Positions 1 to 44,600 of a stretch of 64,000 nt of DNA are shown piece after piece; within the stretch, counting starts at the first letter, position 1, and the number at the start of each line of letters is the position of its first letter. The DNA is taken from IMG/VR virus record IMGVR_UViG_3300045988_184255, one strand, 5' to 3'. The stretch is from a virus. Position numbers and translations under genes: made by a program. The notes below the pieces were generated by a model, which had not been told where the DNA came from, searched no databases, and worked only from the letters and a program-made list of their open reading frames with translations.

Positions 1-275
1 GATACGCTCGGTACGAGTTTTGTGCTTACCGAAATCTTTCCGGATGCACGGACAAACATCTTTGGTGCTGTCTGCTGTGATGCAGACTCCCCCGAATATG
101 GACACCGTGTTCTTTTCGGGTGGGACCTCATCGAGCGCATGGCGGAATGCAGAAATTCTGATTGACTCAGGCAGGCACGGGAGAGGTTCGCCTCTCCCCT
201 GCTCTGCGCGGTTCGGGCAGCGGTGCAGCGTGCGTCGCCGCCTGAACTGCAGAAGACAAAAGAAAGGAGAACACC

Positions 276-1295
276 ATGGATTTAGATGCTCTGGACACCG
301 CATATGGTGCCGAGCAAATCGACTCCGATTTGCTGTTGACAGACATTCGCACAGGGCTTGAATACACTCTTCGGAACAAGACCTATTGTGGACAAGACCC
401 GTTCGGTAAAAGGCGCTACGGTGCTGATGCTGGGGATATGTGTTATGTCTTCGGTAAGGAGAACAACATCTTAAAGTTGGTCATCAACATTGCGTTGGAT
501 GGCGGCTACGGAATAAACCCGCTGCCTCGTGACGTGGCTGCGGCCATTCTGAGGGACGTAAGCGCTGCAATAAAACCTATTGCAAACAAGCACTCGGCAC
601 GAGCTATCATCAAGAAGCAGCCGTTTTGCTCTGCGGCAATGGGTGCCCGTTCAGGTGCCTTATTCCAATCAGCCGCATTATACGGCTACATCATATCAAC
701 GCCCTACGCTAAGGATACCGGCATTCCTGATGAGAAAATCATCTGGGATGCCAACAGAGACATTTGGTGCAAACGCTGCGGTCAGATTCGAGATACGCGA
801 TTTGCTGCCGGCCAGAAAACTGATTACACCATTCAGCCTTCCGATTTTGGGAAGGTATTCCTTCTCGGAGGCTCCCTGTATCGTATCATCGGAATGGGTG
901 AAAACAGCATGGACGAGGTACTCGTGCAAGGTGTAGACGGTCAAGATAAAGGCGATACCGTGGAGATATCTTTGCCCCTCGTTGAACACGCCCTGTACCT
1001 TGCCGAAATGCAAAATGTCAGTGTCTCAAGGGATGTGGAAACTGCTTTCTATGAGAATAAAAAGCATATCCAAGCCCTGCTGGACCGTGTTGGTGTGGAT
1101 GTGATGTACCGTGAGATGTTTGAGCTTGATGGCTTTACCTACGCATTGGTCGGCATCATACCCACCAAAGTAAAGGATATCTTCGGCGCTGTCCGCGTGG
1201 ACGAATCCGGAGAAACCTTTGATGATGTTCTGTTCTTCTCGTTCGGTGATGTCATTGAGGCGATTCGTTCTGAACGTGACGGAAGTAAAAGCTAA
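276..1295 (+). CDS. Paralog A of a four-member tandem family (339 aa), unknown function; conserved Y-C-x-x-DPFG-x-x-R-[YC]-G, [IV]PxxKIxWDA and G[VI]D[VI]xYREMF motifs
   Basis: ATG 276 preceded by aaagaaaggagaacacc; full-length ORF; motifs shared with the three downstream paralogs. Confidence 0.7.
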   Translation: MDLDALDTAYGAEQIDSDLLLTDIRTGLEYTLRNKTYCGQDPFGKRRYGADAGDMCYVFGKENNILKLVINIALDGGYGINPLPRDVAAAILRDVSAAIKPIANKHSARAIIKKQPFCSAAMGARSGALFQSAALYGYIISTPYAKDTGIPDEKIIWDANRDIWCKRCGQIRDTRFAAGQKTDYTIQPSDFGKVFLLGGSLYRIIGMGENSMDEVLVQGVDGQDKGDTVEISLPLVEHALYLAEMQNVSVSRDVETAFYENKKHIQALLDRVGVDVMYREMFELDGFTYALVGIIPTKVKDIFGAVRVDESGETFDDVLFFSFGDVIEAIRSERDGSKS

Positions 1296-1313
1296 AAAGA
1301 AAGGAGAAACGCT

Positions 1314-2351
1314 ATGAACCTGCACACACTTGACACCACCGTTGGTGCGGGAACAATCACCAGCAAGAATGGGCTCTGTGAGTTCATCAAACAGGTTGTT
1401 GAGTTCAACGTGAAGGGACAGGCCTATTGCTGTAAAGACCCCTTCGGAAAAGAACGCTACGGAAATGACCCCGACCTTCCCCACCCGTGCAAGGTATCGT
1501 ACGAAAAAGCTAATATCACAGAAGTCACACTCAACCTCATCGTAGACGCAGACAATCACAAGTACGTTGAGTCATGTGTTGGTGAGATGCGCGATGATAT
1601 TAAGGCGGCTTTGTGGTATGTGGCGGACACGTATAAGGCTCGGATTTTCGTGCAAAAGCCGTCATTCGGGACAAAGCGCAATGGTGCTGGACGGAGATTC
1701 AGGTTTGCGGTGTTCGGTATCGAGTTCATCCGGACGCCGTACCACAACAACCCCAACGTGCCTGATGAGAAAATCGTCTGGGATGCCCGATGCCTGCGAT
1801 TGCAAGAGGATATTGAAGATGAAAAAGGACGCACCAGCGGCCCTCCTCATATGCCTTTCTATCCGCTAAAATCAACCGATTATGAGCGTGAGTTTCTCTA
1901 TGAGGGTGCCATGTATCGTATTGTTGGCTTTGCGGACGAGTTCAGTTATCTGGACGTGCGACTGCAGCCTGCGGGAAGTACGGGAGACGAAGGCATCATA
2001 GTGGTTCCGTTGGCAAATCTTCGGCGACCTCTTTTTGATGATGACGCCGATATCCCCGCACGAAAACTGAAGGCGGCAAAGGAGGAAGAAGTAGACTTTT
2101 ACGAAGGCAGGGATTGTATCAAAGCCGCCCTCGCTCGTGATGGAGTATCCCTTATGTATCGTGAAATGTTCCAGTACGCCAAGCGCACCTATGCATTAAC
2201 TGCAATTACACCGGACGCGCAAAGTCAATCTTACATCTTCACCGCTACTTGCGTTGAGGACGAAGAAGAAAAAGCTGTCGGTGAAAAGCTCAAGCTCACG
2301 TATCAAGAGGTAATTAAACGAGTTATCGCCGACCGCAGACAGTGGGCTTAA
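1314..2351 (+). CDS. Paralog B of the Cys-x-x-DPFG tandem family (345 aa)
   Basis: RBS aaagaaaggagaaacgct then ATG; shares YCCKDPFGKERYG, VPDEKIVWDA, LMYREMFQ with neighbours. Confidence 0.7.
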   Translation: MNLHTLDTTVGAGTITSKNGLCEFIKQVVEFNVKGQAYCCKDPFGKERYGNDPDLPHPCKVSYEKANITEVTLNLIVDADNHKYVESCVGEMRDDIKAALWYVADTYKARIFVQKPSFGTKRNGAGRRFRFAVFGIEFIRTPYHNNPNVPDEKIVWDARCLRLQEDIEDEKGRTSGPPHMPFYPLKSTDYEREFLYEGAMYRIVGFADEFSYLDVRLQPAGSTGDEGIIVVPLANLRRPLFDDDADIPARKLKAAKEEEVDFYEGRDCIKAALARDGVSLMYREMFQYAKRTYALTAITPDAQSQSYIFTATCVEDEEEKAVGEKLKLTYQEVIKRVIADRRQWA

Positions 2352-2372
2352 AAAGCAAGAAAGGAGAAAGCT

Positions 2373-3467
2373 ATGGATTTGAAAACCATTGACACTGCAG
2401 CCGACATAGGACGTGCAGAGGGTTCATCCCTCTGCACGACACTGTGCAATTACGTCTATGAAGCGCTAAAGGACAAGGATTACTGTTGCAAGGACCCCTT
2501 TGGCGAGGCTCGCTGTGGCAACCGCCGCATCAACATTTGCTACGTATCCGGCGGAGCCGCAACCATCACCCATGTATCGCTTGCAATCTGCCTCAACAAT
2601 ATGCTCTTCGCAGATAATAAGCGTGGGATGAAGCTCTGTTGGACGGATATGTATAATGATGTCATGGCTGCTGCAAAGCAGGCTGCGGCGAAGCACAGTG
2701 CTCGTGTATTTGCACCGAAACAGGTGCTGGGTACTGTACCACGTATTCAGACGGACTGGGCCAGTATGTCGAAGAGTGTCTACTCAAATGAAAAGCCTGA
2801 TTCTTTGCCGCGAGTCGAGAAATCCTATGTTGCAAAGTTTTCCTTTGCCTTCTATCGGACATCCTACTATGCCGACAAGGATATTCCTGATTCCAAAATC
2901 ATCTGGGATGCCTTCTGCCGGCAGAGGGAGGAACACTTCAGGCTTCACAAAGCGGATAAAACTATCATGCAGCCGGTCTATAAACTGAAGTATTCCGATT
3001 ACGGCAGGTTGTTCTCTTATATTGAAACGACCTACTGTATCGAGGGCATCGACAAAAACAGCCTCCCCATCGGAGTATCCCTCCGCCAGATGGACGGCAG
3101 GGAACCCGGCAAGACTGTTGAATGGCCTTTCAACCGCGTGGAAGAGATTCTACGTGATATTGAGGACAGCATGGCTGCTGACCAGCATATTGAGTCAGGC
3201 AAGGAAGAGGAGGCTATGTTCTACAAGAACAAGCAGGTCATCCAACGCCGACTCGACGAGGAGGGCATCGACATCGTCTACCGTGAAATGTTTGACTTCT
3301 GCGGATGCAGTTATGTTCTTACTGCCATCCACCCCAAGGCACGAAAGCACGTCTTCACAGCTATTTGCCTTGGCGACGAGGAGGGGAAGGAGAAGGCTCA
3401 CAAAAAGACCTTTGGCTGGGAGCTGCTCCGCATTATCAGCACACACAGATTTACCGCCACCGCCTGA
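2373..3467 (+). CDS. Paralog C of the Cys-x-x-DPFG tandem family (364 aa)
   Basis: RBS aagaaaggagaaagct then ATG; YCCKDPFGEARCG, IPDSKIIWDA, IVYREMFD. Confidence 0.7.
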   Translation: MDLKTIDTAADIGRAEGSSLCTTLCNYVYEALKDKDYCCKDPFGEARCGNRRINICYVSGGAATITHVSLAICLNNMLFADNKRGMKLCWTDMYNDVMAAAKQAAAKHSARVFAPKQVLGTVPRIQTDWASMSKSVYSNEKPDSLPRVEKSYVAKFSFAFYRTSYYADKDIPDSKIIWDAFCRQREEHFRLHKADKTIMQPVYKLKYSDYGRLFSYIETTYCIEGIDKNSLPIGVSLRQMDGREPGKTVEWPFNRVEEILRDIEDSMAADQHIESGKEEEAMFYKNKQVIQRRLDEEGIDIVYREMFDFCGCSYVLTAIHPKARKHVFTAICLGDEEGKEKAHKKTFGWELLRIISTHRFTATA

Positions 3468-3487
3468 AAGGAGAGACCTTACGACCG

Positions 3488-3517
3488 AAAAGCGCCCCTA
3501 CGGGCGCTTTTCTTTTG
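3488..3517 (+). terminator. Rho-independent terminator closing the paralog A-C operon (aaaagcgcccctacgggcgcttttctttt)
   Basis: GC stem with tacg loop followed by T-run; first element of the repeated cassette. Confidence 0.7.
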
Positions 3518-3527
3518 CCTGAAATCA

Positions 3528-3661
3528 TTGACAAAATATCAAACTGTGGTAGTATAGAATTATAATTACGAAGCTATTTTTATAAAGGAGAGTATCTCCG
3601 TTTCAAGTCACCATACATAAATTCAGACAGTTATCCCAATCTTGGGTGGCTGTCTTTTTTT
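3528..3661 (+). promoter_or_regulatory. Cassette copy 1: promoter TTGACA-N16-TGgTAGTATAGAAT, SD-sequestering hairpin (GGAGA gta TCTCC), and leader hairpin agacagttatcccaa/ttgggtggctgtct plus T7
   Basis: Near-identical sequence occurs six times in the window at operon heads. Confidence 0.75.
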
Positions 3662-3726
3662 ATATATTTTTATACATTTTATATGCCCATAAGTCCTCTT
3701 AATAGGCAGGGAGAAAGGAGAAAAAT

Positions 3727-4758
3727 ATGGATGTGAAATCTCTCAACGGCTCATCCGGAAGATGGAGCGATATTAGTCTGGCCGTACCATTTGATACCGG
3801 CATGGATAGAAAGATTCGTGACAAGCTGATGGATGCCGTGGCGGAAGAACTGAAAGGCAACGCCAACTGCGGCTACGACCCTTTCGGTGCAGAACGCTTC
3901 GGCATCAAGCGCCATAACTGTGGCTACATTCAGAAAAACGGCAGCTACATCGTCGGTATTGGTATCCGCATTGTGATGGATACAAATTACGATTCAGACG
4001 TGTCCCGCGAGCTTATTCGTCAGGATATGCTTCCTGCTGTGCAGCGTGTGGCAGCACAGTTCGGCGTAAGGGCAACCGTTGTGGAACGGAGTTCGCAACT
4101 CTTCGATGCGGAGTTGGAGGACAAAACAATCAGGCGCAATGTTCTCATCAATCTGTTTGAGTGCAGATTTTACCGCACAGTATTCCATGACGAAGCGCAA
4201 GTTCCGACCGAAAAAATCGAGTGGGATGCCTACTGCGCTCACTGTGCGACTTTGCCACGGGACGTTCCGCCAAAACGTTTGCTGAATCCGAACGATTTCG
4301 GCATCACCTTCAAGAAGGGACGATATGAGTACGAACTCGTTGGTGTCTACAAGTACCGTCCGTGGAAGTACGTTGTTGGAAAGCGAATCGGCGAAGTCTC
4401 TACTGGCAAGGAAATCCTCATTCCCCGTGAGGAGATGGAGCAGATTTGCTACGAGCTGCAATGCACAGACAAGGATGCTCTGGCCTTGGAAAATGCCAAG
4501 GACGAAGAAGCCGCATTCTACCGCAACAAAGAGTATATCCGGCATCGACTTGAACGCTTTGGCATCGACATTTCCTACCGTGAGATGTACTCGTATGACG
4601 GACATGACTTTATCATCATCGGCATCCAGCCGAAAGCCCATACCTACCCCTTCGTGGTGCGTTGTGTGGATGAGGACGGTCCGATGTCCGGTAAGGTGAG
4701 CAAGCAGCGGTTATGGAACGTTTTGGACGTGATTGCTGCGGAACGCAGAAAGCAATAG
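3727..4758 (+). CDS. Paralog D of the Cys-x-x-DPFG tandem family (343 aa), first gene after cassette 1
   Basis: RBS gggagaaaggagaaaaat then ATG; NCGYDPFGAERFG, VPTEKIEWDA, ISYREMYS. Confidence 0.7.
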   Translation: MDVKSLNGSSGRWSDISLAVPFDTGMDRKIRDKLMDAVAEELKGNANCGYDPFGAERFGIKRHNCGYIQKNGSYIVGIGIRIVMDTNYDSDVSRELIRQDMLPAVQRVAAQFGVRATVVERSSQLFDAELEDKTIRRNVLINLFECRFYRTVFHDEAQVPTEKIEWDAYCAHCATLPRDVPPKRLLNPNDFGITFKKGRYEYELVGVYKYRPWKYVVGKRIGEVSTGKEILIPREEMEQICYELQCTDKDALALENAKDEEAAFYRNKEYIRHRLERFGIDISYREMYSYDGHDFIIIGIQPKAHTYPFVVRCVDEDGPMSGKVSKQRLWNVLDVIAAERRKQ

Positions 4759-4772
4759 AAAGGAGAATACCC

Positions 4773-5006
4773 ATGCAGACATTCTTAGGCACTGTCAGAG
4801 GTGTTGGTGTGATGCTGTTTGTGGCGTTCCTGCTGGTCGGCTCGTTGTGGCTCGGCCTTCATCACGTCACCTTCATCGGCGAAAAGTTCAAGGGACGTAC
4901 CGGCAGCTTGCTGGCCTACCTTGCACTCATCATCATCTTTGGCGGCGGGCTGGCATTGGCGGTCATTATCTCCATCCAGTGTCCTATCAGCCCGCTTCAT
5001 CAGTAG
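4773..5006 (+). CDS. Small membrane protein (77 aa, two predicted TM helices)
   Basis: RBS agaaaggagaataccc then ATG; hydrophobic stretches VMLFVAFLLVGSLWLGL and LLAYLALIIIFGGGLALAVIISI. Confidence 0.5.
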   Translation: MQTFLGTVRGVGVMLFVAFLLVGSLWLGLHHVTFIGEKFKGRTGSLLAYLALIIIFGGGLALAVIISIQCPISPLHQ

Positions 5007-5059: not shown

Positions 5060-7081
5060 ATGAGCAAAATTCATCTGTCCTTTTTAGCCCCCGGAAAGAA
5101 TTCCGGATACAAAGATACCGTAACGGACATCTACTACAAGGGTATGAATGTGGGGTACATCCTTGAGAACAGAGATACCCTCCGCGATGACACCAAGAAC
5201 TATATGGCATATCGGTTCGCCCATTGCGGCACTGATTATTGGGCTCGCGGCGAGTACATCTATGGCAGCCAATCTTCTACCATCGCAGGGGCAAAGGAGA
5301 AGTTCAGAGCTTGGTTCGAACGCGACGGCGTGGGCACTTACGAGAAGTCCGCGCCCAAGGTCAGACAGCGGCACGCCACCGCACCTGAAACTCTCACCTC
5401 TTACGTCTGCGGTAAGGCACTCCGCATGGTGGACTGGTCTGCCGTGCGCGATGGCGACATTCTGAACCCCATTTGCGGGGACATGAGTGAGCTGCAGCTT
5501 CACGAGTGCTTCCGTCGTTTTGCCGGCTGGTACAGAAACAAGAACAAGGTCTGGCAGCACGAAAGTGCATATTACGGTGAAAAGTATTTGGATACCGTGG
5601 TAGAAGATGTTTGTGTGGCGGAAACGCTGAAGGAAGAAGGCATCCGTGTCGTCTACGACGACTTTGCAAAGTTCAACACACTGAAACCCTATCCCCTCAT
5701 CATGTTCGCCCACACATCGGCGGTCTCCCCTGCTTTCGCTGCACGGTGGATTGGCAAATCTTTGACCATGCTGCGAAAATGCGGCGGTCAGCTTCTCGCC
5801 ATCCTTCCCTACTCCACACTGGCTGCAGACACTTCGCTGTCTTATATGCTGGAAACGAAGAGAATCAATGCCTCTATGTTCTATGTGGAGAAGGAGTTCA
5901 AGCGTGACAGAACGAGACGGACGGCTCCTGAGTGGGTAATTATCCATGTCAACGTCAAGCCGACGAACGCATATAGCCGGAATGAAGCGGATGTATTGAG
6001 CGAGAATCTTACGACTATGCGTGACTACGAGGTTCAGAAGCCGTTCCTTCCCGATTGGAGGAAGAAGTTTCCGCAGGACATCATTGAGGAATTTGAGCTC
6101 AAGGCTCGTATTTGCAACTCCTTCATTGGCTCCTACGAAGAGGTTAAGCCCTTTATAATGAGCGGCTCTGAGTGTTACGACCAGCCCTATGTCAAACTGG
6201 CCGTGGACGACCATCCTTGGAGGGATTCCGGCGTTGAACTTCGAATGGCGTGCTTGGAGAAGATTCGAGCACACTTTTGGAACGTTTTCATGAGCAGAGC
6301 TGCGAACACCGACTGTATGCCTGATGGACTGAAGTCCGATTATGAGCGGCTTCTTACGGAGCTGAAGGACTATGACCTCAACGACTACACGGTGAAGCGG
6401 GTACTGGAGGACATCCACAGGAAGCTGCATAGGGGTTGCACCACTTCCCTGCTGAACCTGTTCGATAGGCTTGGGAGTATGGGAAGTAGGCAACGGTATG
6501 ATGTGTACGATTACGATGTGGACACGCTATCAAGTGAGAACACCCAGAAATATTGCTCTTTCGACAAGAAACAGACCGCTGGGTTCCGTTTGGTGTTCCC
6601 GAACCTCTCTATGTACTACTACGTCTTCGACTGCTACAGAAATGCTTTCAATCAGGGTAAAGCCGCATATGTGGTGCATGATATGGAAAGCGCTCTGCAT
6701 CTTCTCAACGGTGGCAAGAATATACCTAACGCTATCGACCCGATGACTGCTGTCAACGATAATGTCACAAACGGGAAAAGCGCCGGTAAAAGTATCGCAT
6801 TCACGTTCTTTACCGGTTCTTTCTATAAGAAAGGCATTCTGAAGTTGAAGTTCAAGGACTCCGCCAAACTGCTCATCGACCGGCTGAACATTTTCGTCGG
6901 TATGAAGCGCGGCTGGTTGCCTGCTGACTACGGCACCAAGCCGTATGATGCTTTGAGTAACGCTGAAAAGAAAGTCATTGACAGCTTCCAAAGCCGTGAG
7001 GAGTACGATGCAGTCGTTGCAAATCCTGATGAGTACATCATCAAGGATTTCGACATTGAGAAGCTGTTTGAAGCGCGTTAA
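5060..7081 (+). CDS. Large protein of unknown function (673 aa)
   Basis: ATG 5060 preceded by an orphan copy of the cassette 3-prime motif (ttcccgtaagacctttaaggctgggagaaaggagaaaataATG); long ORF. Confidence 0.65.
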   Translation: MSKIHLSFLAPGKNSGYKDTVTDIYYKGMNVGYILENRDTLRDDTKNYMAYRFAHCGTDYWARGEYIYGSQSSTIAGAKEKFRAWFERDGVGTYEKSAPKVRQRHATAPETLTSYVCGKALRMVDWSAVRDGDILNPICGDMSELQLHECFRRFAGWYRNKNKVWQHESAYYGEKYLDTVVEDVCVAETLKEEGIRVVYDDFAKFNTLKPYPLIMFAHTSAVSPAFAARWIGKSLTMLRKCGGQLLAILPYSTLAADTSLSYMLETKRINASMFYVEKEFKRDRTRRTAPEWVIIHVNVKPTNAYSRNEADVLSENLTTMRDYEVQKPFLPDWRKKFPQDIIEEFELKARICNSFIGSYEEVKPFIMSGSECYDQPYVKLAVDDHPWRDSGVELRMACLEKIRAHFWNVFMSRAANTDCMPDGLKSDYERLLTELKDYDLNDYTVKRVLEDIHRKLHRGCTTSLLNLFDRLGSMGSRQRYDVYDYDVDTLSSENTQKYCSFDKKQTAGFRLVFPNLSMYYYVFDCYRNAFNQGKAAYVVHDMESALHLLNGGKNIPNAIDPMTAVNDNVTNGKSAGKSIAFTFFTGSFYKKGILKLKFKDSAKLLIDRLNIFVGMKRGWLPADYGTKPYDALSNAEKKVIDSFQSREEYDAVVANPDEYIIKDFDIEKLFEAR

Positions 7082-7150: not shown

Positions 7151-7286
7151 TTGACAAAATATCAAACTGTGGTAGTATAGAATTATAATTACGAAGCTAT
7201 TTTTATAAAGGAGATTATCTCCATTTTCCAAGTCACCATACGTAAATTCAGACAGTTATCCCAATCTTGGGGTAGCTGTCTTTTTT
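7151..7286 (+). promoter_or_regulatory. Cassette copy 2 (promoter plus leader hairpins)
   Basis: Same TTGACAaaatatcaaactgtggtagtatagaat ... agacagttatcccaatcttggggtagctgtcttttttat as copy 1. Confidence 0.75.
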
Positions 7287-7946: not shown

Positions 7947-8195
7947 ATGGGCATTGGACGAGTCCTCACGTGGAAGTACGTCATCCGTGACAGCGATGGC
8001 TATACGCTTTGCGCTGACCCCAGAGCATCCGGCTACGCCTATTACTGGTCGAAAATCGACCATGATGGCGTGCAGCCCATCGTCTTCGGCGATAGGGCTC
8101 AGGCGCAGAGCTATCTCGACGCTATGCGGCACAACGAGCCGCTCAATCGCAGATGGGACCAATGTCGGGTCGAAGGCCCGTTCATGGATTTGTAA
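7947..8195 (+). CDS. Small protein (82 aa), unknown
   Basis: ORF closely follows the previous stop; weak RBS gagagg. Confidence 0.4.
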   Translation: MGIGRVLTWKYVIRDSDGYTLCADPRASGYAYYWSKIDHDGVQPIVFGDRAQAQSYLDAMRHNEPLNRRWDQCRVEGPFMDL

Positions 8196-8222: not shown

Positions 8223-8885
8223 ATGTTCAAAATCATCAGCATCGACGAAACTCAGTTTTTCTGCAACGGCTGCGGGGAGGTATTCGTATGGGAGTTCAAC
8301 ACCCCCGACAAGAAGCCCCCCAAGGACTGGGATGGGCGGTATGACACCGCTTCCCTGTGCAGCATCAACGTTCCCGACTATCGCGGCGTGCCCGGACTGT
8401 ACCCCTCCGGCTTCGATACCAAGCTCGCCGAGTACGATAAGGAAAAGTACGAAGCATTCCTGAAGGGAGAGTATCAGCCTCCTGTGGAAGACATGGACTG
8501 GTACACGAAGGTGCCTCCCCTGCTGCGCTGGGCCTATTTCACCTGCTGGGCCGACAGCCTGAACTTCCCCACCTACATCGCCACTGTGAACGGCCAGCCG
8601 TGTTTGCTGATTATCGCAGAGGCCGGTGAGGAGATGTCCAAAAAGGACGGAAAGCGGGACGTCAGCATCCGCAAGGCGCTGATGGAATCTGGCCGCAAGC
8701 TGGCCGAGAAGCTGAACGCGGATGAGAAGCTGAAGAAGCTGCACGCAGATGTGCTGTTCCCCAAGGACACGGATACCCCGTTTTGCCAGTGGGAACTGTA
8801 TGTCGCCATCCCCGTGACGGAGAATGTCACCTTTGAGGACATCAAGGCCGTAGCGGACGTGATGGACGAGTGCATCGACTACTGA
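8223..8885 (+). CDS. Protein of unknown function (220 aa) with N-terminal CxxC pair
   Basis: RBS ttgaaaggagaaaaaaca then ATG. Confidence 0.6.
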   Translation: MFKIISIDETQFFCNGCGEVFVWEFNTPDKKPPKDWDGRYDTASLCSINVPDYRGVPGLYPSGFDTKLAEYDKEKYEAFLKGEYQPPVEDMDWYTKVPPLLRWAYFTCWADSLNFPTYIATVNGQPCLLIIAEAGEEMSKKDGKRDVSIRKALMESGRKLAEKLNADEKLKKLHADVLFPKDTDTPFCQWELYVAIPVTENVTFEDIKAVADVMDECIDY

Positions 8886-8946
8886 TGCCCAAATGAGGGC
8901 GGGGAAGTCCCCGCCCTCTCTTGCGAAGAAGAAAGGAGAATACATT

Positions 8947-9630
8947 ATGACCTTTAAGTCTGACAGACCTGTCGGGCGGTACTGCATTGTGCCGAATAGT
9001 TTGGTCGTGGACTACGACAAGACCATCATCTTCCGTGACCGGCGAGGTAATCCCGTGTTCACCCTGCCCAATGGCGGGAAACTGCTGATTACCGATGGGC
9101 CTCGTGCTGAACCCAAAGTCTACACCTGCCGGTTCATCGACGAGTCGCACTTCAAGCTGGCCGCAAAGGGCGAGGGTTCTTGGCCGTATCATCACGACCA
9201 GTTCATTGAGCGTATGGAGTCCATGCGCGGCTGTACCTATCGTCCTGAAAAGTTCGACACACGGCTGGGTGTCTATCAGCGCATCTATTCTGACAGAACC
9301 CGACTGACAGAGGAAGGAAAGCCTGTCACGTTTCGTGTCATGTTGGCACAGGAGTTTGACGACTTCGAGCGCCGCTGTTATGTGTCCTACTGCCGCAGCG
9401 AGAGCGTTGTGGCTGTGTCCACCTCTATCGTGTATCCCAAGAAAGAACGCTATAAGGAGTTCATTCCTGCAAAGGAATTTCTGGAGATGCTGCACGGTGA
9501 GCGTACGATGTCCGAAACGCTCAACAGGATGCCGCCGTTTACTGACCTCAATATTGAGTTCATGACGGCGTTCATCACCGACAACGACGAGGTTGGTCAT
9601 ATGGAACCCGCCGACGAGAAAGGAGACTGA
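8947..9630 (+). CDS. Protein of unknown function (227 aa)
   Basis: RBS gaagaaaggagaatacatt then ATG. Confidence 0.6.
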   Translation: MTFKSDRPVGRYCIVPNSLVVDYDKTIIFRDRRGNPVFTLPNGGKLLITDGPRAEPKVYTCRFIDESHFKLAAKGEGSWPYHHDQFIERMESMRGCTYRPEKFDTRLGVYQRIYSDRTRLTEEGKPVTFRVMLAQEFDDFERRCYVSYCRSESVVAVSTSIVYPKKERYKEFIPAKEFLEMLHGERTMSETLNRMPPFTDLNIEFMTAFITDNDEVGHMEPADEKGD

Positions 9631-9632
9631 AA

Positions 9633-10538
9633 ATGGAACGACTCACCATCCGCCTTCCTGATGGACAGGCCTGTGTGGACTGCAACCGGTGTAAGTCTGA
9701 GCGCACGGGCGAATCCGACGCTGTAAAGGAGATGTGCTCTACACTCTATTGCCGCAACCGGCTGAAAGACCGGCTGGCGGCTTTCGAGGACACCTTCCTT
9801 GACCCTGAAGAGCTGCTGAAGCTCAAGCAGGAGAACGAGACTCTCCGCCGCATTCTGGGCAAGAGGTTCGGACCCGCCCCAGACGCCTCCGTACCTGAAC
9901 TGGTCGGAGCCATCAGCGATAAGATGCGAGAGACAGACGAAACCATCTACGCGCTTCGGCACGAGTTGGATGTTCTCAAGTCTACTTATCGCCCGAACTG
10001 CGTCAACTGTGAGCATATGCACAAGGACAACTTCAACTGTACCGCTGTCGGCGGTTTCTGTACGGCTGTTCCTGCTGCTCATTGCCCGAAGCTGAAAGAG
10101 CTGATAGAGAAAGAGGCTGCGTCTCAGACCAAGGAGGTCAAAGACGACACCCATGCCGAGTTTCTGGAACGTTGGGCTGCGGAGCTGAACAACAGAAACG
10201 AACGGAGCGTTGTTCCTGCGGCTCTGGGGGCCGTCAAGGGCCTCGTAGTGGTGTATGCCGCATCGGATGACCTCGTGGAAATCGAGGGTGCTATGACGCA
10301 GGAAATCGGCGCCTTTAATGGTGTCAAGCTGACTGCGAGTAAAGCTCAAGGTTTCTACGAGACAGCCGCTGGCGAGCCGGACATCGAGTTTCGTTGGTGC
10401 GATGACAACTCTGGCGACTCTGTCTGCCCGTGGTCTGTCATCTGCAATCTCCCCCATCGAAAGTTCGACATTCTCGATGACGAGGGCTATGTGTCCAGTG
10501 TTGGCATCGTGCTGCACATCGACGACATTCCGGAGTAA
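9633..10538 (+). CDS. Cys-rich protein of unknown function (301 aa)
   Basis: RBS gagaaaggagactgaaa then ATG; several CxxC pairs. Confidence 0.6.
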   Translation: MERLTIRLPDGQACVDCNRCKSERTGESDAVKEMCSTLYCRNRLKDRLAAFEDTFLDPEELLKLKQENETLRRILGKRFGPAPDASVPELVGAISDKMRETDETIYALRHELDVLKSTYRPNCVNCEHMHKDNFNCTAVGGFCTAVPAAHCPKLKELIEKEAASQTKEVKDDTHAEFLERWAAELNNRNERSVVPAALGAVKGLVVVYAASDDLVEIEGAMTQEIGAFNGVKLTASKAQGFYETAAGEPDIEFRWCDDNSGDSVCPWSVICNLPHRKFDILDDEGYVSSVGIVLHIDDIPE

Positions 10539-12196: not shown

Positions 12197-12332
12197 TTGA
12201 CAAAATATCAAACTGTGGTAGTATAGAATTATAATTACGAAGCTATTTTTATAAAGGAGATTATCTCCGTTTTCCAAGTCACCTTAAAGAATCAAGACAG
12301 TTATCCCAATCTTGGGATGGCTGTCTTTTTTT
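12197..12332 (+). promoter_or_regulatory. Cassette copy 3 (promoter plus leader hairpins; leader variant accttaaagaatcaagacag)
   Basis: Repeat of the cassette; hairpin agacagttatcccaatcttgggatggctgtct plus T7. Confidence 0.75.
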
Positions 12333-14052: not shown

Positions 14053-14898
14053 ATGGATTCCAAGAAAAAGACAAACAAGACTCGTTGTAGGGCTTGCCCC
14101 GCATCCGGTTTTTGCTCCGATGTCTGCTACAATAGGGATGTTCCTGATGCCACCTGTGCTCATGCCGTGAAGTACGATAAGCTGAATAAGCGTGTCGCTT
14201 CGCTGGAGGGACAGGTTGAGACGGTGAAGTTCATGCCGCTGAAGCAGCGAGACGCCGAGCTGGAAAAACTGTGGGATGAGTTCACGGATGTCCCGATGAA
14301 TCCGGACACCGAGAAGATGGAGGATGCGTTCCTCCACTTCCCCGCCGGCACTCCTCGTGAAGACATCTGGCACTGGTTCGACGAACGCTATTCCAAGGGC
14401 ATCGCTGCGCTGCTTTACGGTCGTGGCGAGGACAACACAGCTACCATCGCTACTCTGACTTATCGGAACGAGCTGTGCTGCGAGTGCGACTCTGAGTTGT
14501 GCGCCTTTGCGGATGCTTCCGGTATTTGCCGTGCTCCGTTCATTACCGGCGCCGCGCCGCGTATCCACGAGGATGGCTGCGACGATTTCTGCAGTAAGTG
14601 CGATGCGGGCTGCACGGCCAGCGTCGCAGACAAGACTTCTGAGGCTGGACGGTATATGGTCTTCACGGACAGTCCCTACGTCAGAGACGCTCAGATTTAC
14701 TGCGGCACCATCGACGAAGATATCTATTCCGAGGAAAACGAGGATAACTGGTACGATACCAGCGGTCCTGTTCTGCTCGTTGACAGAGATTTCAAGACCC
14801 TCGATGAGCTGCGGAAAACGGTGATGAACTTCTATCCCGACATGGACCTTTGTACCCTGCGTGCCATTCGGGTCTCAGCGGAAACTGTCTGCCTGTAA
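14053..14898 (+). CDS. Cys-rich protein (281 aa), unknown
   Basis: RBS aaagaaaggagaaaataatc then ATG; many CxxC-type pairs. Confidence 0.6.
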   Translation: MDSKKKTNKTRCRACPASGFCSDVCYNRDVPDATCAHAVKYDKLNKRVASLEGQVETVKFMPLKQRDAELEKLWDEFTDVPMNPDTEKMEDAFLHFPAGTPREDIWHWFDERYSKGIAALLYGRGEDNTATIATLTYRNELCCECDSELCAFADASGICRAPFITGAAPRIHEDGCDDFCSKCDAGCTASVADKTSEAGRYMVFTDSPYVRDAQIYCGTIDEDIYSEENEDNWYDTSGPVLLVDRDFKTLDELRKTVMNFYPDMDLCTLRAIRVSAETVCL

Positions 14899-14912
14899 GG
14901 GAGGTGCCCACA

Positions 14913-15365
14913 ATGGATGCCTTTTTGGAAAAGCTCAAAAAGTCTTTTGTCGAACGTTTTACGTCTTTGATGGAAGACAACGGCGACTCCGTGACGGAAG
15001 CTGCGAGGATTATCGGTGTTGCTCCGGAAGCTGTCTCAACGTGGCTGCGTGGGCGTATCGTGCCGAGCATTGATTACTTCGCTAAAATTGCGGATGTTTA
15101 CAATGTCTCTGTTGATTATCTGCTGGGTCAATCTGAGACCCAGCAGATAAAAGACATCCCCGATGAGGCGGCATATCCGGCTGTTCCCGCACGAGCCTTC
15201 TACAACTCGGCACTACAGCTTATGGCAAAACAGAATTCTCTCATTTCCCAACAGAATGCGTTGTTGCAGCAACAGAACGCTATTCTGAAGGCAATGCAGC
15301 AGAAGGCCACTGTTGAGAACACATCTCTGCCTTCGACAGATGTGCCTCTTGGTTTGCCATTTTGA
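14913..15365 (+). CDS. XRE-family (Cro/cI-type) helix-turn-helix regulator (150 aa)
   Basis: TEAARIIGVAPEAVSTWLRGRIVPSIDYFAKIADVYNVSVDYLLG is a classic HTH_3 pattern; RBS gggaggtgcccaca. Confidence 0.7.
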   Translation: MDAFLEKLKKSFVERFTSLMEDNGDSVTEAARIIGVAPEAVSTWLRGRIVPSIDYFAKIADVYNVSVDYLLGQSETQQIKDIPDEAAYPAVPARAFYNSALQLMAKQNSLISQQNALLQQQNAILKAMQQKATVENTSLPSTDVPLGLPF

Positions 15366-15498: not shown

Positions 15499-15714
15499 AT
15501 GGAAGAATTCGTAAAGGGCGTATCCAAAACTTGCCTATATGAAGACCCTCACTGTGACGAAGAGGATGCGGAAATGGACCGTCGGATTTCGTCGGTAGCC
15601 TTTGAAGCCTATCAACGGGCAAAAATGAAAGGTATTCCTGTTGCTCGCTATGATGCAGAGAAAAAGTGTGCCTATTTACTGTATCCGGATGGGAGAATCG
15701 AGTATGTCAAATGA
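15499..15714 (+). CDS. Small protein (71 aa); epsilon-antitoxin-like partner candidate
   Basis: RBS ttgaaaggaggatacaact then ATG; overlaps the start of the downstream P-loop kinase by 11 nt. Confidence 0.45.
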   Translation: MEEFVKGVSKTCLYEDPHCDEEDAEMDRRISSVAFEAYQRAKMKGIPVARYDAEKKCAYLLYPDGRIEYVK

Positions 15715-16384
15715 GAAACAGCGGAAACCTTGCATTATCGTTTTCGCTGGGCCTAACGGGTCAGGTAAAAGCTCACTTACAAGTAGAGTAGATATACTAC
15801 CCCCGTATATCAACGCAGACGACATCAAAAAAGAAACTGGATGCAGCGATTTGGAAGCGGCACAGAAGGCTGATGCAATGCGCTTACAGTGTGTAGAATG
15901 GGGCGAAGATTTTACCTTCGAGACAGTTTTGTCCACGAATAAAAAACTGGAATTTCTAAAATATGCAAAAGAGCATGGGTATTTCATAAAAGGCTTTTTC
16001 GTTCTTACGAAAGACGCATCCGTAAACGTACTTCGTGTATGGGAACGTGTTCAATCTGGAGGCCACGACGTACCTGAAGAAAAGATTCGGTCTCGGTACG
16101 AAAAGTCTTTGGCAAGGGTTCAGGCCTTTGTTGACCTATGCGACATCTGCCATATTTATGACAACTCCGGCTCTTCAACGGATAGAATATTCAAGAAGGC
16201 ACATGGCGACACCTATAAATGCAGGGAAAATGCTTTCTGGAGCAAACAGGAAATCTGTGACCTCGTAGGCATCAAAAGCAATAATGTTGGAGAACTTCTG
16301 CTTTCCGACTATGAGAAGAAGCTCTGTAATTCACTTAATAGTGCTACTGAGACTGAGGAGGACGTAGATAGAAATGACAAGTAG
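15704..16384 (+). CDS. P-loop kinase resembling zeta-toxin family (226 aa)
   Basis: Walker A VFAGPNGSGKSS near the N-terminus; size and the overlapping small upstream gene fit an epsilon/zeta-like module. Confidence 0.5.
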   Translation: MSNEKQRKPCIIVFAGPNGSGKSSLTSRVDILPPYINADDIKKETGCSDLEAAQKADAMRLQCVEWGEDFTFETVLSTNKKLEFLKYAKEHGYFIKGFFVLTKDASVNVLRVWERVQSGGHDVPEEKIRSRYEKSLARVQAFVDLCDICHIYDNSGSSTDRIFKKAHGDTYKCRENAFWSKQEICDLVGIKSNNVGELLLSDYEKKLCNSLNSATETEEDVDRNDK

Positions 16385-17353: not shown

Positions 17354-17489
17354 TTGACAAAATATCAAACTGTGGTAGTATAGAATTATAATTACGAAGC
17401 TATTTTTATAAAGGAGATTATCTCCGTTTTCCAAGTCACCATACGTAAATTCAGACAGTTATCCCGTTTCGGGGATAGCTGTCTTTTTT
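17354..17489 (+). promoter_or_regulatory. Cassette copy 4 (promoter plus leader hairpins; hairpin variant agacagttatcccg tttc ggggatagctgtct with compensatory changes)
   Basis: Repeat of the cassette; the stem changes preserve pairing. Confidence 0.75.
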
Positions 17490-23427: not shown

Positions 23428-23563
23428 ATTGACAAAATATCAAACTGTGGTAGTATAGAATTATAATTACGAAGCTATTTTTATAAAGGAGATTATCTCC
23501 GTTTTCCAAGTCACCACATAAATTCAGACAGTTATCCCAATCTTGGGGTAGCTGTCTTTTTTT
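23428..23563 (+). promoter_or_regulatory. Cassette copy 5 (promoter plus leader hairpins; lacks the ttcccgtaagtcct pre-RBS motif)
   Basis: Repeat of the cassette. Confidence 0.75.
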
Positions 23564-24129: not shown

Positions 24130-24335
24130 GTAAGCATCGTTGGACTATCGAGGAACTGAAGAACGTCAATGACGCTCAGTTCGCTATGGCGATTCTGATG
24201 GAACGCCGCAGTGAGTTATCGAATCCCTACACCCCGTTCGCACAGCGCCTTACCAGCGTCATCAATACGCTGACGGACATGGCTGTGGATGGCGGGCTGA
24301 CAGACGAAGAAAGGAGTAAGAACAATGGCCGCTGA
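24126..24335 (+). CDS. Small protein (69 aa) whose C-terminal 34 aa tail is duplicated at the end of the next gene
   Basis: GTG start overlapping the upstream stop; the tail YTPFAQRLTSVINTLTDMAVDGGLTDEERSKNNG recurs at 24670..24777. Confidence 0.45.
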   Translation: MSKHRWTIEELKNVNDAQFAMAILMERRSELSNPYTPFAQRLTSVINTLTDMAVDGGLTDEERSKNNGR

Positions 24336-24777
24336 AATGAGACTTTACCGCGTAACGGTTATCGGCAGCAATGCCGAAAGGAAGCGCGGAAAAGTGGTGG
24401 AAGAGGTCACAGTCAAGGTCGGAACCAAGTGGCTGACGGACGATAACGGTCGGCGTTACTACAAGGTGCCGCTTGAGGACGCAAACCGAAACCTCTACTT
24501 CCAGCTCAACACCATGTACTGCATGGACTACCGGCTGTATCAGACAGAGCAGGCCGCCAAGGATTACCTTCGGCAAGCGGAACTGCGTGTGGCGCTTTGC
24601 AAGGCGGTGAGCAATTTCGGCTTCAACGCTCCCCTGCCTGTGCTGGAGAAGGTCATGGATACGCTGAAATACACCCCGTTCGCACAGCGTCTCACCAGCG
24701 TCTTCAATACGCTGACGGACATGGCTGTGGATGGCGGGTTGACGGACGAAGAAAGGAGCAAGAACAATGGCTGTTGA
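24325..24777 (+). CDS. Protein (150 aa), first copy of a tandem duplicate pair
   Basis: ATG embedded in the upstream gene tail (aacaATGgccgctgaaatgag); N-terminal MAAEMRLYRVTVIGSNAERKRGKVVEEVTVKVGTKWLTD. Confidence 0.55.
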   Translation: MAAEMRLYRVTVIGSNAERKRGKVVEEVTVKVGTKWLTDDNGRRYYKVPLEDANRNLYFQLNTMYCMDYRLYQTEQAAKDYLRQAELRVALCKAVSNFGFNAPLPVLEKVMDTLKYTPFAQRLTSVFNTLTDMAVDGGLTDEERSKNNGC

Positions 24778-25135
24778 GATGAGACTCTACCGCGTGCCTA
24801 TTATCGGTAGTAATGCCGAACGGCGGCACGGAAAGGTGGTGGATGAGGTCACGGTCAAGGTTGGAACCAAGTGGCTGACAGACAATAGAGACTGTCGATA
24901 CTACAAGGCTCCTTCCGAAGATGCGAACAGAAATCCCTATTTCCAGCAGAACTCCATGTACTGGAGTACAGATTACCGGCTGTATCAGACGGAACAGGCT
25001 GCCAAGGACTATCACCATCAGGCGGAATTGCTCATAGCTCTTCGCAGAGCCGTTGGCGACTTCGGCTTCAACGCCCCGTTGACCGTGCTGGAGAAGGTCA
25101 TGGACACTCTCAAGGAAGGCGGATGCTTGAAATGA
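24767..25135 (+). CDS. Protein (122 aa), second copy of the tandem duplicate (MAVEMRLYRVPIIGSNAERRHGKVVDEVTVKVGTKWLTD)
   Basis: Same junction sequence as the upstream copy; about 70 percent identical. Confidence 0.55.
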   Translation: MAVEMRLYRVPIIGSNAERRHGKVVDEVTVKVGTKWLTDNRDCRYYKAPSEDANRNPYFQQNSMYWSTDYRLYQTEQAAKDYHHQAELLIALRRAVGDFGFNAPLTVLEKVMDTLKEGGCLK

Positions 25136-27254: not shown

Positions 27255-28295
27255 ATGGGTAATACATCTATCGGAGCCGCTGCATCTTTCTGCAACGAGA
27301 ACACGCTGGTCAAGGTCTACCGCTATAATCCTAAGTACGACAGGTTCGAGACGACCTTCGTTCCTTTCAAGGACATCCGCAAGAGCGATTCTGTGAGCGT
27401 CTTTGCCAGTGATGGGCACGAGATGCACTTTTCCGTTCTCACAAATGCTTCTTTTAAGAAGGACGAGCGATACGGGAACGAGTGCGGTTGGTCTGTGAAA
27501 GTCACTGAGGACGGCGGCAAGACGGAGATGGTTCTTCGTCCCACCGATTTCGCGCCCTACATCATCAGCCTTTCCGTTACCGACGAAGGAGAGTGGCGCG
27601 GCTGCCGGCTGCTTTTCGAAAGCGTCCTCAACGACACCGAAGCTATCGTCAACAATATGCGGGCGCGATTCGAGCCGCGTGTTGCGCCGGAAAACACCTG
27701 CGGGCGGCATTCCGACACAGTTGCGGCCATGGCGAAGAGAGACCTTACTCGTGAGTGGACGGAGCAGTTCGGCTTCCGGCTCATTTCGGACAGCGTAAAC
27801 TTCGCCCAGTGCAGTGTGAAGGACATTCTCTCTGATAAGTTCTTCAATCCCCCTGCCATGGAGTTGACGTTCTTCGCCTATTCCGACGGCGAGTATTCAG
27901 CGTCCCCCCTGTTCTTTGCCAAACTGCCCGATTTGGGCGAACGGTACAACAAGCCTGAGGGACGTGCTGCAATCGCAGAACTGCTGCAGAAGCTGGATGA
28001 GATGTACGGCGACCTGCCTGAAGACACAACAAAATGGGCTCTGGAGTATCAGCTTTGGGCTCGTATGCTGCTGGCAGAAGGTGCGGTCATGCTGAATCCG
28101 AAGCACCTCGACCTCCCCGACTGCGCCTACGAATTCAAAACGCTGGCTTTCGGTAATAAAATGCTGAAAGACAGCGGTGACGGTATTGCGTGGGCAAAGG
28201 CTGTCAAAACACCTATCAGCGTAATCGCCGAGGCGTGGGAGAATGACATGAGCGAGTCCGGCGATGAGGCTTTTACCTGCATCGTGACGGGCTGA
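27255..28295 (+). CDS. Protein of unknown function (346 aa), first of a tandem paralog pair
   Basis: RBS aaagaaaggagaaaaatt then ATG; shares LTFFAYSDGEYS..PLFFAKLP...YQLWARMLL.EGAVMLNPK with the next gene. Confidence 0.6.
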   Translation: MGNTSIGAAASFCNENTLVKVYRYNPKYDRFETTFVPFKDIRKSDSVSVFASDGHEMHFSVLTNASFKKDERYGNECGWSVKVTEDGGKTEMVLRPTDFAPYIISLSVTDEGEWRGCRLLFESVLNDTEAIVNNMRARFEPRVAPENTCGRHSDTVAAMAKRDLTREWTEQFGFRLISDSVNFAQCSVKDILSDKFFNPPAMELTFFAYSDGEYSASPLFFAKLPDLGERYNKPEGRAAIAELLQKLDEMYGDLPEDTTKWALEYQLWARMLLAEGAVMLNPKHLDLPDCAYEFKTLAFGNKMLKDSGDGIAWAKAVKTPISVIAEAWENDMSESGDEAFTCIVTG

Positions 28296-28309: not shown

Positions 28310-29362
28310 ATGGATATGCCGATTTCGAACAAGCGAAAGCTGCACTGCGACGAGAACGTACTGGTCCACATTGTGCGCTACTGCCATGATACGGATGACG
28401 CAGATGGCGACGGCGTCAGAGAGGTGGAAATGTACGTCCCCTTCAAGCACATTTGCAAGGGCGATGCCATTGATATTCCTGATAAGGACACCGACGATGC
28501 CTTCAGAACAACCGCCTATGCTGCGGAAGACGCTTCGTACAACGAGGCTAAGGCGGGTGGTTGGTTTGTGCCGGTCGCCTGCACTGGGCAGAAAGATTAC
28601 ATTCTGAAGCCCGACGATTTCGCACCTTGGCTCGTGACACTGAGCGTTGTGTTCACGAACGGGTCGTCCTGCAAGCTCTTTTTCGAGTGCGTGGAACGAA
28701 GCGAAGAGAAGCTGCGGGCAAACATCCGCAGAATCTTTGACGATGTGCCGACGCTGCGGCATGAGATGGGCTTCGTTGCCCTCGTCCGCCATATGGCATG
28801 GAAGTACCTCACACCGGAAAGAACGGAGCCTCTCGGCTTCAGATTCCTTTCGGATGATGTCGTCTGGAGCAACTGCAAAGTGAAGGACATCCTTCCTGAC
28901 CGGTTCTTCGCGGCGGCTGACATGAAGCTGACGTTTTACGCCTATGCGGAAGATGAGTATTCTGGGAATCCTCTGTTCTTTGCAAAGCTGCCGTATCTCG
29001 GTACGCATCACGGACATCCTGAAGGTTGTGTGATTTGCGCTTCCATCCTGCGGAAACTGGATGAGCTGTATGGCGACCTGCCGACGGAAACGTCCCGTTG
29101 GTCGCTGGAATACCAGCTCTGGGCGCGTATGCTGCTCTCTGAGGGAGCAGTTATGCTCAATCCGAAGTACATTGACTTGCGCCAAGACGGTGCGCTTGAT
29201 GCGCTTCTGGAGGACATTCCGATGATTGATGGTTTCGCCGATGACGTCGCTTGGCGTCGTGTGGCAGGTGTACCCATCGACGAAATCCATGAAGTGTGGG
29301 ATGCGAGTTCGGATGATGGTGTCGCTCCGTTCACCTATACCGTCCGAGCAAAAATCCTTTGA
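28310..29362 (+). CDS. Protein of unknown function (350 aa), second paralog
   Basis: RBS ctgaaaggagaaaaacat then ATG; about 45 percent identical to the upstream neighbour over the C-terminal 200 aa. Confidence 0.6.
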   Translation: MDMPISNKRKLHCDENVLVHIVRYCHDTDDADGDGVREVEMYVPFKHICKGDAIDIPDKDTDDAFRTTAYAAEDASYNEAKAGGWFVPVACTGQKDYILKPDDFAPWLVTLSVVFTNGSSCKLFFECVERSEEKLRANIRRIFDDVPTLRHEMGFVALVRHMAWKYLTPERTEPLGFRFLSDDVVWSNCKVKDILPDRFFAAADMKLTFYAYAEDEYSGNPLFFAKLPYLGTHHGHPEGCVICASILRKLDELYGDLPTETSRWSLEYQLWARMLLSEGAVMLNPKYIDLRQDGALDALLEDIPMIDGFADDVAWRRVAGVPIDEIHEVWDASSDDGVAPFTYTVRAKIL

Positions 29363-29437: not shown

Positions 29438-29575
29438 ATTGACAAAATATCAAACTGTGGTAGTATAGAATTATAATTACGAAGCTATTTTTATAAAGGA
29501 GATTATCTCCGTTTTCAAGTCACCACAAAGAATCAAGACAGTTACTTCCCTTTTCTGGGAAGTGACTGTCTTTTT
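29438..29575 (+). promoter_or_regulatory. Cassette copy 6 (promoter plus leader hairpins; hairpin variant agacagttacttccc ttttct gggaagtgactgtct)
   Basis: Repeat of the cassette with covarying stem bases. Confidence 0.75.
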
Positions 29576-29642
29576 CTATATATAACATTTTTTGGATTCC
29601 CGTAAGTCCTTATTACAGGCTGGGAGAAAGGAGAAAAAGACC

Positions 29643-34564: not shown

Positions 34565-34639
34565 GCCCATTTGCTGCAGGAAGGAGTTGATTTTCTGCAT
34601 ATAAAGATGTATAATAATGTGCAGAAAGGAACTGGTGTT

Positions 34640-35721: not shown

Positions 35722-35931
35722 ATGACAGCCAAGCTGAAAAGTGATGCGCTGAGAGTTGTCAAGAGACTCCGCTGCTACGGCACGGACGCTGAAGACAACT
35801 TCGGCTGTGGCGATAAGCGGTGCAAGTACCGAGATGTGGACGGTGCCTGCAACATTAACAGCCTTGAAGCTGATGCTGCCGAAGTGATAGAGAAATTGTT
35901 GAAGGAGGTTGAAAAGTTTGAACATCGCTGA
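35722..35931 (+). CDS. Small Cys-containing protein (69 aa)
   Basis: RBS gacaagaaaggagaaagcaca then ATG. Confidence 0.45.
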   Translation: MTAKLKSDALRVVKRLRCYGTDAEDNFGCGDKRCKYRDVDGACNINSLEADAAEVIEKLLKEVEKFEHR

Positions 35932-44162: not shown

Positions 44163-44600
44163 ATGAGCAGCTATGAAAAATTTAAGACGGTGTGGACCGT
44201 AGGCAACATCATCGTTATCTACCTCCTCAATGCATTCATTTTGAAGAAGGCGGGGTATCCCATCTGGGCTGGCTTCACGCCGATTTACAACATCTTCTGC
44301 CTTTTCTATTCCACTTACGGACATACCCGTTACGTATGGCTGATGCTGGTGCCTATCGTCAACATCGTCCTTACCATCGTAACGTGGGTGAAGTTCGTAT
44401 CCATGTTTGGTGTGGACTATCAGGGGTTTACCAGCTATCACAGACCGAAAATGGTGTTCTGGATGGCTCTGTTCCCTGCTATCGTCTATGCGATTTTGGC
44501 TTTTGACCCCACAGAGTACAAAGGCCCCTACCCCGGCCCTGACCCCTTTAAGAAAAATCCTATTCCCGCCGCTGACAACAACGGTGGTGCGAATATGTAA
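44163..44600 (+). CDS. Membrane protein (145 aa, about 4 TM)
   Basis: RBS ctgaaaggacaattact then ATG. Confidence 0.5.
   Translation: MSSYEKFKTVWTVGNIIVIYLLNAFILKKAGYPIWAGFTPIYNIFCLFYSTYGHTRYVWLMLVPIVNIVLTIVTWVKFVSMFGVDYQGFTSYHRPKMVFWMALFPAIVYAILAFDPTEYKGPYPGPDPFKKNPIPAADNNGGANM

Follow-up and report, generated by a model that had tools for sequence, protein, structure and literature searches.

Tandem paralogues related to Y4mA_C proteins in a putative promoter-marked regulon of a human-gut mobile element

What might a mobile element of the human gut gain from carrying a row of related, strongly diverged genes one behind the other, and what could the encoded proteins do? The question is raised by the IMG/VR record IMGVR_UViG_3300045988_184255, a stretch of 64,000 nucleotides (hereafter the window), at the start of which a plus-strand array includes four complete open reading frames (ORFs) for mutually similar proteins of 339-364 amino acids (aa). 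Comparison of the window with 33 related loci shows that the four ORFs belong to a rare protein family that is specific to one group of mobile elements. As argued below, this family appears to be an enlarged offshoot of the Y4mA_C proteins, embedded in what looks like a regulon of several operons, and its members may tentatively be viewed as accessory proteins that act early in the life of the element in a new host. The array and its immediate surroundings are organized as follows.

1-162, plus strand: C-terminal 54 residues of a class B member in frame 1, cut by the window start (hmmsearch E 4.9e-10)
276-1295, plus strand: class C paralogue (copy 1), 339 aa; ORF and alignment, AlphaFold2 model
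1314-2351, plus strand: class D paralogue (copy 2), 345 aa; ORF and alignment
2373-3467, plus strand: class E paralogue (copy 3), 364 aa, closing the B-C-D-E operon
3487-3512, plus strand: terminator-like hairpin of the intrinsic type with a T-run behind it; end of the B-E unit
3727-4758, plus strand: class G paralogue (copy 4), 343 aa; ORF and alignment, AlphaFold2 model
4773-5006, plus strand: 77-aa predicted membrane protein, co-transcribed with copy 4
5060-7081, plus strand: 673-aa orphan methyltransferase-like protein with a DUF4942 domain (Pfam PF13708, E 5e-15)

The original prediction described a tandem family of four with three conserved motif blocks, the fourth member lying in the next transcription unit beyond a cassette, and in these respects it was accurate. 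Pairwise BLASTP comparisons among the four copies give E values of 1e-21 to 6e-43, far beyond chance, and in a full-length alignment copies 2-4 are 27-32% identical to copy 1, with 42 invariant columns. The first motif takes the forms YCGQDPFGKRRYG, YCCKDPFGKERYG, YCCKDPFGEARCG and NCGYDPFGAERFG in the four copies, the second reads [IV]P[DT]xKIxWDA and the third, close to the C-terminus, EExxFYxNK...G[IV]D..YREM[FY]...I.P. In a 12-sequence alignment that represents all eight classes of the family, the C, D, P, G and R of the first motif and the K, I, W and D of the second are invariant. Each of the four ATG codons is preceded, at a distance of 6-7 nucleotides (nt), by the ribosome-binding site GAAAGGAGAA, and copy 4 opens a new transcription unit, being separated from copy 3 by the terminator and by a promoter-leader-terminator cassette that starts at position 3528. 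A profile search of the ORFs in all six frames of the window recovered no further full copy of the family. The paralogues, otherwise ~27-33% identical, also have in common an N-terminal octapeptide, M-D-[LV]-x-x-[LI]-[DN]-[TG], which might serve as a targeting tag or structural cap or reflect a constraint on translation start.

Outside its own group of elements the family is extremely scarce. Of 1.84 billion representative proteins scanned exhaustively with HMMER, 32 matched at E<=0.001, ~8 of them full length and the rest fragments, chimeras or distant small proteins; word-indexed protein searches for relatives likewise returned few matches. When 185,579 species, each represented by one genome, were scanned by pattern and by tblastn, neither a family member nor the promoter-leader cassette turned up, and tblastn yielded no family match among PLSDB plasmids and INPHARED phages. 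All members reside on related human-gut metagenome contigs of ~68-208 kb, several of which are classed as viral in IMG/VR. Three database ORFs (P0005, P0006 and P0013) join the N-terminus of the family to unrelated sequence: a biotin-synthase-like segment, the C-terminal end of the DUF4942 protein and the 82 aa encoded by the ORF at 7947-8195; these chimeras are likely deletions or assembly artefacts.

The 33 loci together contain 134 full-length genes (112 distinct sequences), which fall into eight classes arranged in the fixed order A346-B394-C339-D345-E364-F341-G343, with class X332 taking the place of C in one lineage. An element carries between one copy (G alone) and seven, and the subsets differ from element to element, the complement of the window being [B, cut]-C-D-E and then G, without F. 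In the related contigs, the full class B gene encodes 394 aa and lies directly upstream of the array (for instance, at 8709-9893 of locus L003). Class G is the only class found in every related element and always stands directly upstream of the methyltransferase gene, a conserved downstream neighbour of the array in the related loci, with or without the 77-aa gene in between; the latter gene was found only alongside subtype 1 of class G. In the X332 lineage, a gene for an RRXRR-type HNH endonuclease is inserted between classes B and X (L001, 6088-7473).

Are these proteins, then, new? The four paralogues had no significant match in Pfam, NCBIfam, PHROGs or PADLOC, a sequence-profile search of the PDB with the family found nothing, and Foldseek searches with the predicted structures returned no PDB match at E<=0.001; the structural resemblance that was noted extends over a third of the protein at 5-9% sequence identity, concerns a generic fold and does not speak for a relationship. 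The PADLOC-DB defence models matched neither the four paralogues nor one small relative, and among the known anti-restriction families represented in Pfam and NCBIfam (ArdA, Ocr, KlcA/ArdB and ArdC) there was again no match. Matches to the Pfam iHKD and tRNA-intron-endonuclease families had E values above 0.1 and were disregarded. DNA mimicry was rejected as a mode of action because the proteins are not strongly acidic, with isoelectric points (pI) of 4.9-7.9 and net charges of -12 to +2. Neither sequence nor fold searches revealed clear homology to a characterized housekeeping enzyme family, the finding that would have refuted the original prediction.

Profile-profile comparison was more informative. 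Residues 85-330 of the family align with small Y4mA_C-type proteins over 184 columns (hhalign probability 99.4%, E 5.3e-21), and the family profile retrieves such proteins by hmmsearch at E values of 1e-7 to 1e-3. These relatives, of ~130-240 aa, contain one or two modules with the signature L-x-x-x-D-[FY]-G-[KR]-x-F-x(3)-G-x-x-Y-x-I-x-G, and those that were checked have precomputed matches to PF27402 (Y4mA_C), mostly unmarked and in one case (P0038) flagged as 'faint'. The precomputed PF27402 matches of the family members themselves are only 'faint', and the copy of Pfam that we scanned predates this entry. The hhalign result argues that the family is a larger, duplicated and N-terminally extended branch of Y4mA_C, itself a family of uncharacterized function; a literature search for Y4mA or DUF4942 returned nothing useful. 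The small Y4mA_C genes occur on alphaproteobacterial plasmids (45 PLSDB records) and phage-like contigs, where small genes follow one another on one strand, accompanied by orphan DNA methylases or by NUDIX and nicotinate phosphoribosyltransferase (NAPRT), SPFH and HD proteins. On the Sinorhizobium plasmid pLM21S1 (locus L041, record 40808-59158), hypothetical genes form a long one-strand array that includes a small Y4mA_C gene as well as genes for NUDIX and nicotinate phosphoribosyltransferase, SPFH and HD proteins, echoing gene types of the window.

AlphaFold2 models of copies 4 and 1, built from a 14-sequence alignment, are of fair confidence. The model of copy 4 has a mean predicted local distance difference test score (pLDDT) of 84 and a predicted template modelling score (pTM) of 0.70, that of copy 1 a pLDDT of 81 and a pTM of 0.63, and the two paralogues, modelled independently, are predicted to share one architecture. 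Three parts can be distinguished in it: a family-specific N-terminal extension of ~85 aa, an alpha/beta sandwich platform and two small beta modules. In order, the chain is modelled as an N-terminal helix, the C-x-x-DPFG-x-x-R loop and a four-stranded alpha/beta sandwich, followed by a helix initiated by E-K-I-x-W-D-A, a four-stranded beta module with a helix, a long helix and a second such module with the terminal helix. The loop of the extension is invariant across classes in the form C-x-x-D-P-F/L-G-x-x-R. The two beta modules are weakly alike (hhalign P 6e-4); the first has an invariant D in a D-F/Y-G/E motif (D190 in copies 1 and 4, D209 in copy 3) followed by Y-x-I-x-G, and the second keeps G-x-x-Y-x-L-x-G-I-x-P, with Y-R-E-M-F in place of D-F-G. 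The fixed scaffold put forward in the original prediction is therefore not wholly new, proving to combine an uncharacterized domain type of Y4mA_C kind with a new N-terminal extension.

A series of diverged tandem copies invites comparison with systems under rapid diversification, and such ongoing 'tandem diversification' had indeed been suggested. The evolutionary evidence speaks against it. Proteins of the same class are 76-96% identical between elements, with the exception of class G, which is split into two deep alleles that are ~53% identical. Median ratios of nonsynonymous to synonymous substitutions (dN/dS, Nei-Gojobori) of seven classes lie between 0.10 and 0.19, indistinguishable from those of five neighbouring genes (0.13-0.23); therefore, the duplications are old and each paralogue has been under ordinary purifying selection. 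Given these ratios, the age of the classes and their fixed order, we rejected rapid or ongoing diversification, and the family seems to follow ordinary evolutionary dynamics rather than those of a hypervariable system. Between classes, the alpha/beta platform is the most divergent part, with a mean identity of 20%, followed by the N-terminal extension and beta module 1 (25% each); identity is highest, at 35-36%, in beta module 2, the long helix and the helix with P-x-E-K-I-x-W-D-A.

A clue to how the array may be expressed is offered by the cassette ahead of copy 4. Its 33-nt promoter, TTGACAAAATATCAAACTGTGGTAGTATAGAAT, comprises a consensus -35 box, a 16-nt spacer and an extended -10 element (TTGACA-16-TGgTAGTAT), and is present in the window in six identical copies, all on the plus strand; related IMG/VR contigs have 8-9 copies each, always in one orientation.

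3528-3662, plus strand: cassette 1, ahead of copy 4, with a ~95-nt leader and a terminator hairpin (3625-3655) plus T-run
7151-7285, plus strand: cassette 2, same promoter-leader, heading the next operon beyond the methyltransferase
12197-12325, plus strand: cassette 3, identical promoter
17354-17386, plus strand: fourth promoter, identical 33 nt
23429-23556, plus strand: cassette 5, identical promoter
29439-29471, plus strand: sixth promoter, identical 33 nt, heading a pair of AAA_5 and VWA genes

At least four of these promoters continue into a near-identical leader of ~95 nt, which contains a small hairpin (GGAGAgTATCTCC) and then a strong terminator hairpin with a T-run, so placed that the terminator precedes the ribosome-binding site of the first gene. 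Folded as RNA, the leader has a z-score of -4.05. Rfam gave only sub-threshold matches of a terminator-like ctRNA kind. A single-stranded DNA (ssDNA) promoter of the F-type, Frpo-like kind was considered and rejected because the ssDNA fold is unremarkable (z = -1.2). A variant cassette precedes class B in L003. The recurrence of such cassettes ahead of operons, including those of classes B and G, argues that the array, together with the orphan methyltransferase gene, belongs to a multi-operon regulon that comprises six or more operons in the window and 8-9 per genome, probably served by strong sigma-70-type promoters. The cassettes look like the mark of a regulon with conditional read-through or else like a repeated small RNA; the repeated early promoters of large phages provide one analogy. 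Among further cassette-bearing loci, only a RecD2-like helicase could be identified, three other large ORFs being without PDB relatives.

What, then, might the paralogues do? The closest described analogy to the cassettes comes from pLS20 and p576, whose establishment regulons are recognized by a regulatory sequence that recurs ahead of several operons (PMC8708921), and accessory regions of this kind in mobile elements host establishment and anti-defence genes (PMC8708921, PMC11541004). By analogy, we tentatively favour, as possible though somewhat short of probable, the interpretation that the paralogues are independent, non-enzymatic accessory proteins of an early, establishment or host-takeover programme, each class binding a different target, because the subset varies from one to seven per element, the genomic setting is of this type and no enzyme signature was found. 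The proteins would be cytoplasmic and act early, during establishment or host takeover, and they would do so independently of one another, since elements keep any subset from one to seven. The divergent surfaces of the N-terminal extension, the platform and beta module 1 may bind a different host or nucleic-acid target in each class, with the conserved C-terminal module and the motifs serving as a putative common core. The most plausible class of targets would be host defence. This interpretation retains one part of the original prediction of a variable binder family on a mobile element: the genes do lie in an accessory region of such an element, beside an orphan DUF4942 methyltransferase, among operons with identical promoters and in subsets of one to seven members. 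For a role as binder, immunity or receptor-mimic proteins, and for the assignment to Clostridia or to conjugative elements, no supporting evidence was obtained.

Several observations weigh against the early-acting accessory role. The selection on the paralogues is purifying, at the level of the neighbouring genes, and bears no signature of an arms race. A terminator stands between the promoter and the first gene, and expression may therefore be conditional rather than immediate. No origin of transfer (oriT), relaxase or type IV secretion system (T4SS) gene was recognized in the 64 kb or its flanks, so that to speak of a 'leading region' or of 'early' genes is no more than analogy. IMG/VR classes related contigs of 68-190 kb as viral, and the element may be a phage. 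Furthermore, the structure models rest on 14 sequences, and eight invariant charged residues together with two invariant cysteines could mark an active site instead of a structural core.

The competing explanation that survives best moves the site of action from host proteins to nucleic acids. The paralogues would bind these through basic loops of the beta modules, coating or protecting the incoming DNA or acting on RNA such as the leader-terminator, and would not be inhibitors of host proteins. A basic inter-strand loop, P-[KR]-x-x-[KRT]-[YF]-P, is indeed retained in module 2 and in the small relatives, but it is lost in module 1 of most paralogues, the net charge of the proteins is neutral to acidic (pI 4.9-7.9) and their models match no DNA- or RNA-binding fold. 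The small relatives offer a further hint, in that phrog_497 has a Y4mA_C unit C-terminal to a part annotated as HicB-like, where HicB antitoxins usually carry a DNA-binding domain. Each operon of the putative regulon also opens with a leader terminator that needs read-through; yet near-identical cassettes do not call for seven paralogues, and the lineages with six or seven copies (L008, L009, L011, L012, L017, L020 and L023) are without cassettes in the loci read. On balance, we consider nucleic-acid binding unlikely.

Distinctly unlikely, in our judgement, is an enzymatic role, in which the invariant Cys, Asp and Arg of C-x-x-DPFG-x-x-R would act together with K-I-x-W-D and the paralogues would differ in substrate specificity. 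The invariance of C, D, P, G, R, R, K, W, D, C, D, E and R across classes that are ~27-33% identical is what an active site might leave behind, and the N-terminal extension, unique to the family, is absent from the small Y4mA_C relatives. Set against this, no enzyme family was matched by sequence or fold, the resemblance of the beta module to the RNA 2'-phosphotransferase Tpt1 (E 0.028) was judged not significant, and the W-D-A-x-C helix looks structural, since its aligned counterpart in the small relatives is the F-E-x-x-[CA] helix.

Whether the paralogues could instead be packaged or structural proteins depends in part on the nature of the element, to which the remaining gene content of the window and its flank is relevant.

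14850-15365: helix-turn-helix (HTH) regulator
15641-16384: Zeta-toxin-like protein
29592-31520 and 32045-34273, plus strand: pair of AAA_5 (CobS/MoxR-like) ATPase and CobT-like VWA protein
34571-35686, plus strand: SoFic-like Fic protein (PADLOC E 4e-36), defence-type cargo
35909-37282: HD protein
41314-41401, minus strand: single tRNA-Ser (anticodon tga)
41444-42880, minus strand: SPFH protein
42907-43695, minus strand: NS endonuclease
49374-51611, minus strand: topoisomerase III
55961-61654, minus strand: TED/TQ/SpaA surface adhesin, 1,897 aa
L038 1067-5185, minus strand, just past the window end: NACHT and metallophosphoesterase protein, 1,372 aa, defence-type cargo

No capsid, terminase, relaxase or T4SS gene was recognized in the window. 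The best plasmid matches of the topoisomerase III are 36-42% identical, and 4,368 of the 5,000 best-matching plasmid records are typed as conjugative. The adhesin has a signal peptide, a thioester domain (TED), five T-Q ester domains, seven SpaA-type domains and a C-terminal anchor composed of VQTGD, a transmembrane segment and RRKK; these features suggest that the host is Gram-positive. As to the element itself, which could be a phage, a phage-plasmid or a large conjugative plasmid, we lean towards a plasmid-like nature. Three further pairs of paralogues in the window (27255-28292 and 28310-29359, 42% identical; 24325-24777 and 24743-25132, 77%; 46146-46835 and 63137-63967 on the minus strand, 30%) proved unrelated to the family under study in a search with the family profile.

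Internal head or ejection proteins of a large phage would be one version of the packaged-protein scenario, with the N-terminal M-D-L-x-x-L-D-T as a targeting tag, and subunits of a single hetero-oligomer another. Giant phages such as phiKZ do possess tandem paralogue families of internal head proteins, the octapeptide is conserved among otherwise divergent paralogues, and, besides the viral classification of the related contigs, there is an overlap between the window end and an unverified record, labelled 'Bacteriophage sp.', of human faecal origin. We nevertheless regard this scenario as very unlikely: variation from one to seven copies between close relatives is hardly expected of an obligate assembly, the genes lie among toxins, the methyltransferase and accessory genes behind sigma-70-type promoters rather than in a morphogenesis module, and none of the 15 window proteins tested (the four paralogues and 11 others) matched a PHROG. 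Finally, it is highly improbable that the paralogues work with the adjacent DUF4942 methyltransferase as its specificity or targeting subunits, each directing it to a different sequence and so broadening protection against host restriction: class G is never lost and always directly precedes the methyltransferase gene, but in fold the family resembles neither HsdS nor any other target-recognition domain, the divergence of the methyltransferase shows no co-variation with the G subtype and DUF4942 is common whereas the family is extremely rare, so that the enzyme does not need it.

If early-acting accessory proteins are the right description, a bolder version can be formulated, namely, that the series of up to seven constitutes a modular counter-defence or host-takeover arsenal built on Y4mA_C modules and the C-x-x-DPFG extension, in which each class would neutralize a different host immune or housekeeping target early after entry; although doubtful as a whole, it would give the small Y4mA_C proteins a first function. 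Early-acting effectors of this kind would represent a new scaffold for inhibitors encoded by mobile elements and suggest a role for the Y4mA_C domain, with its scattered occurrence in plasmid and phage-like contexts. In addition, the identical cassettes delimit a putative regulon, with ~50 kb of genes of unknown function, in an abundant, undescribed human-gut element of ~200 kb, and this regulon could be mined in the same way.

Two known systems bear comparison with the array. The first are the Y4mA_C proteins (PF27402), with which the family shares, in the homologous residues 85-330, a common unit of helix, strands, helix and beta module; some of the small relatives also have two modules, and the small relatives, like the paralogues, are encoded by mobile elements among accessory genes lined up on one strand. 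The family differs from them in the added ~85-aa N-terminal extension with its invariant C-x-x-DPFG-x-x-R loop, in the replacement of D-F-G by Y-R-E-M-F in module 2, and in its size and organization, with proteins of 339-394 aa in an ordered series of up to seven tandem paralogues. The second comparison is with the establishment regulons of conjugative plasmids. The cassette described here, a canonical double-stranded sigma-70-type promoter with a terminator-containing leader of ~95 nt, differs from both the 400-750 bp structured EGeRS1 and the ssDNA promoters, and no repressor was identified. As with EGeRS1 of pLS20 and EGeRS2 of p576 (PMC8708921), several operons of variable genes, mostly of unknown function, are each preceded by a near-identical regulatory sequence in one orientation, and, as in establishment regulons and anti-defence leading regions (PMC8708921, PMC11541004), a methyltransferase of anti-restriction type is found among the operons.

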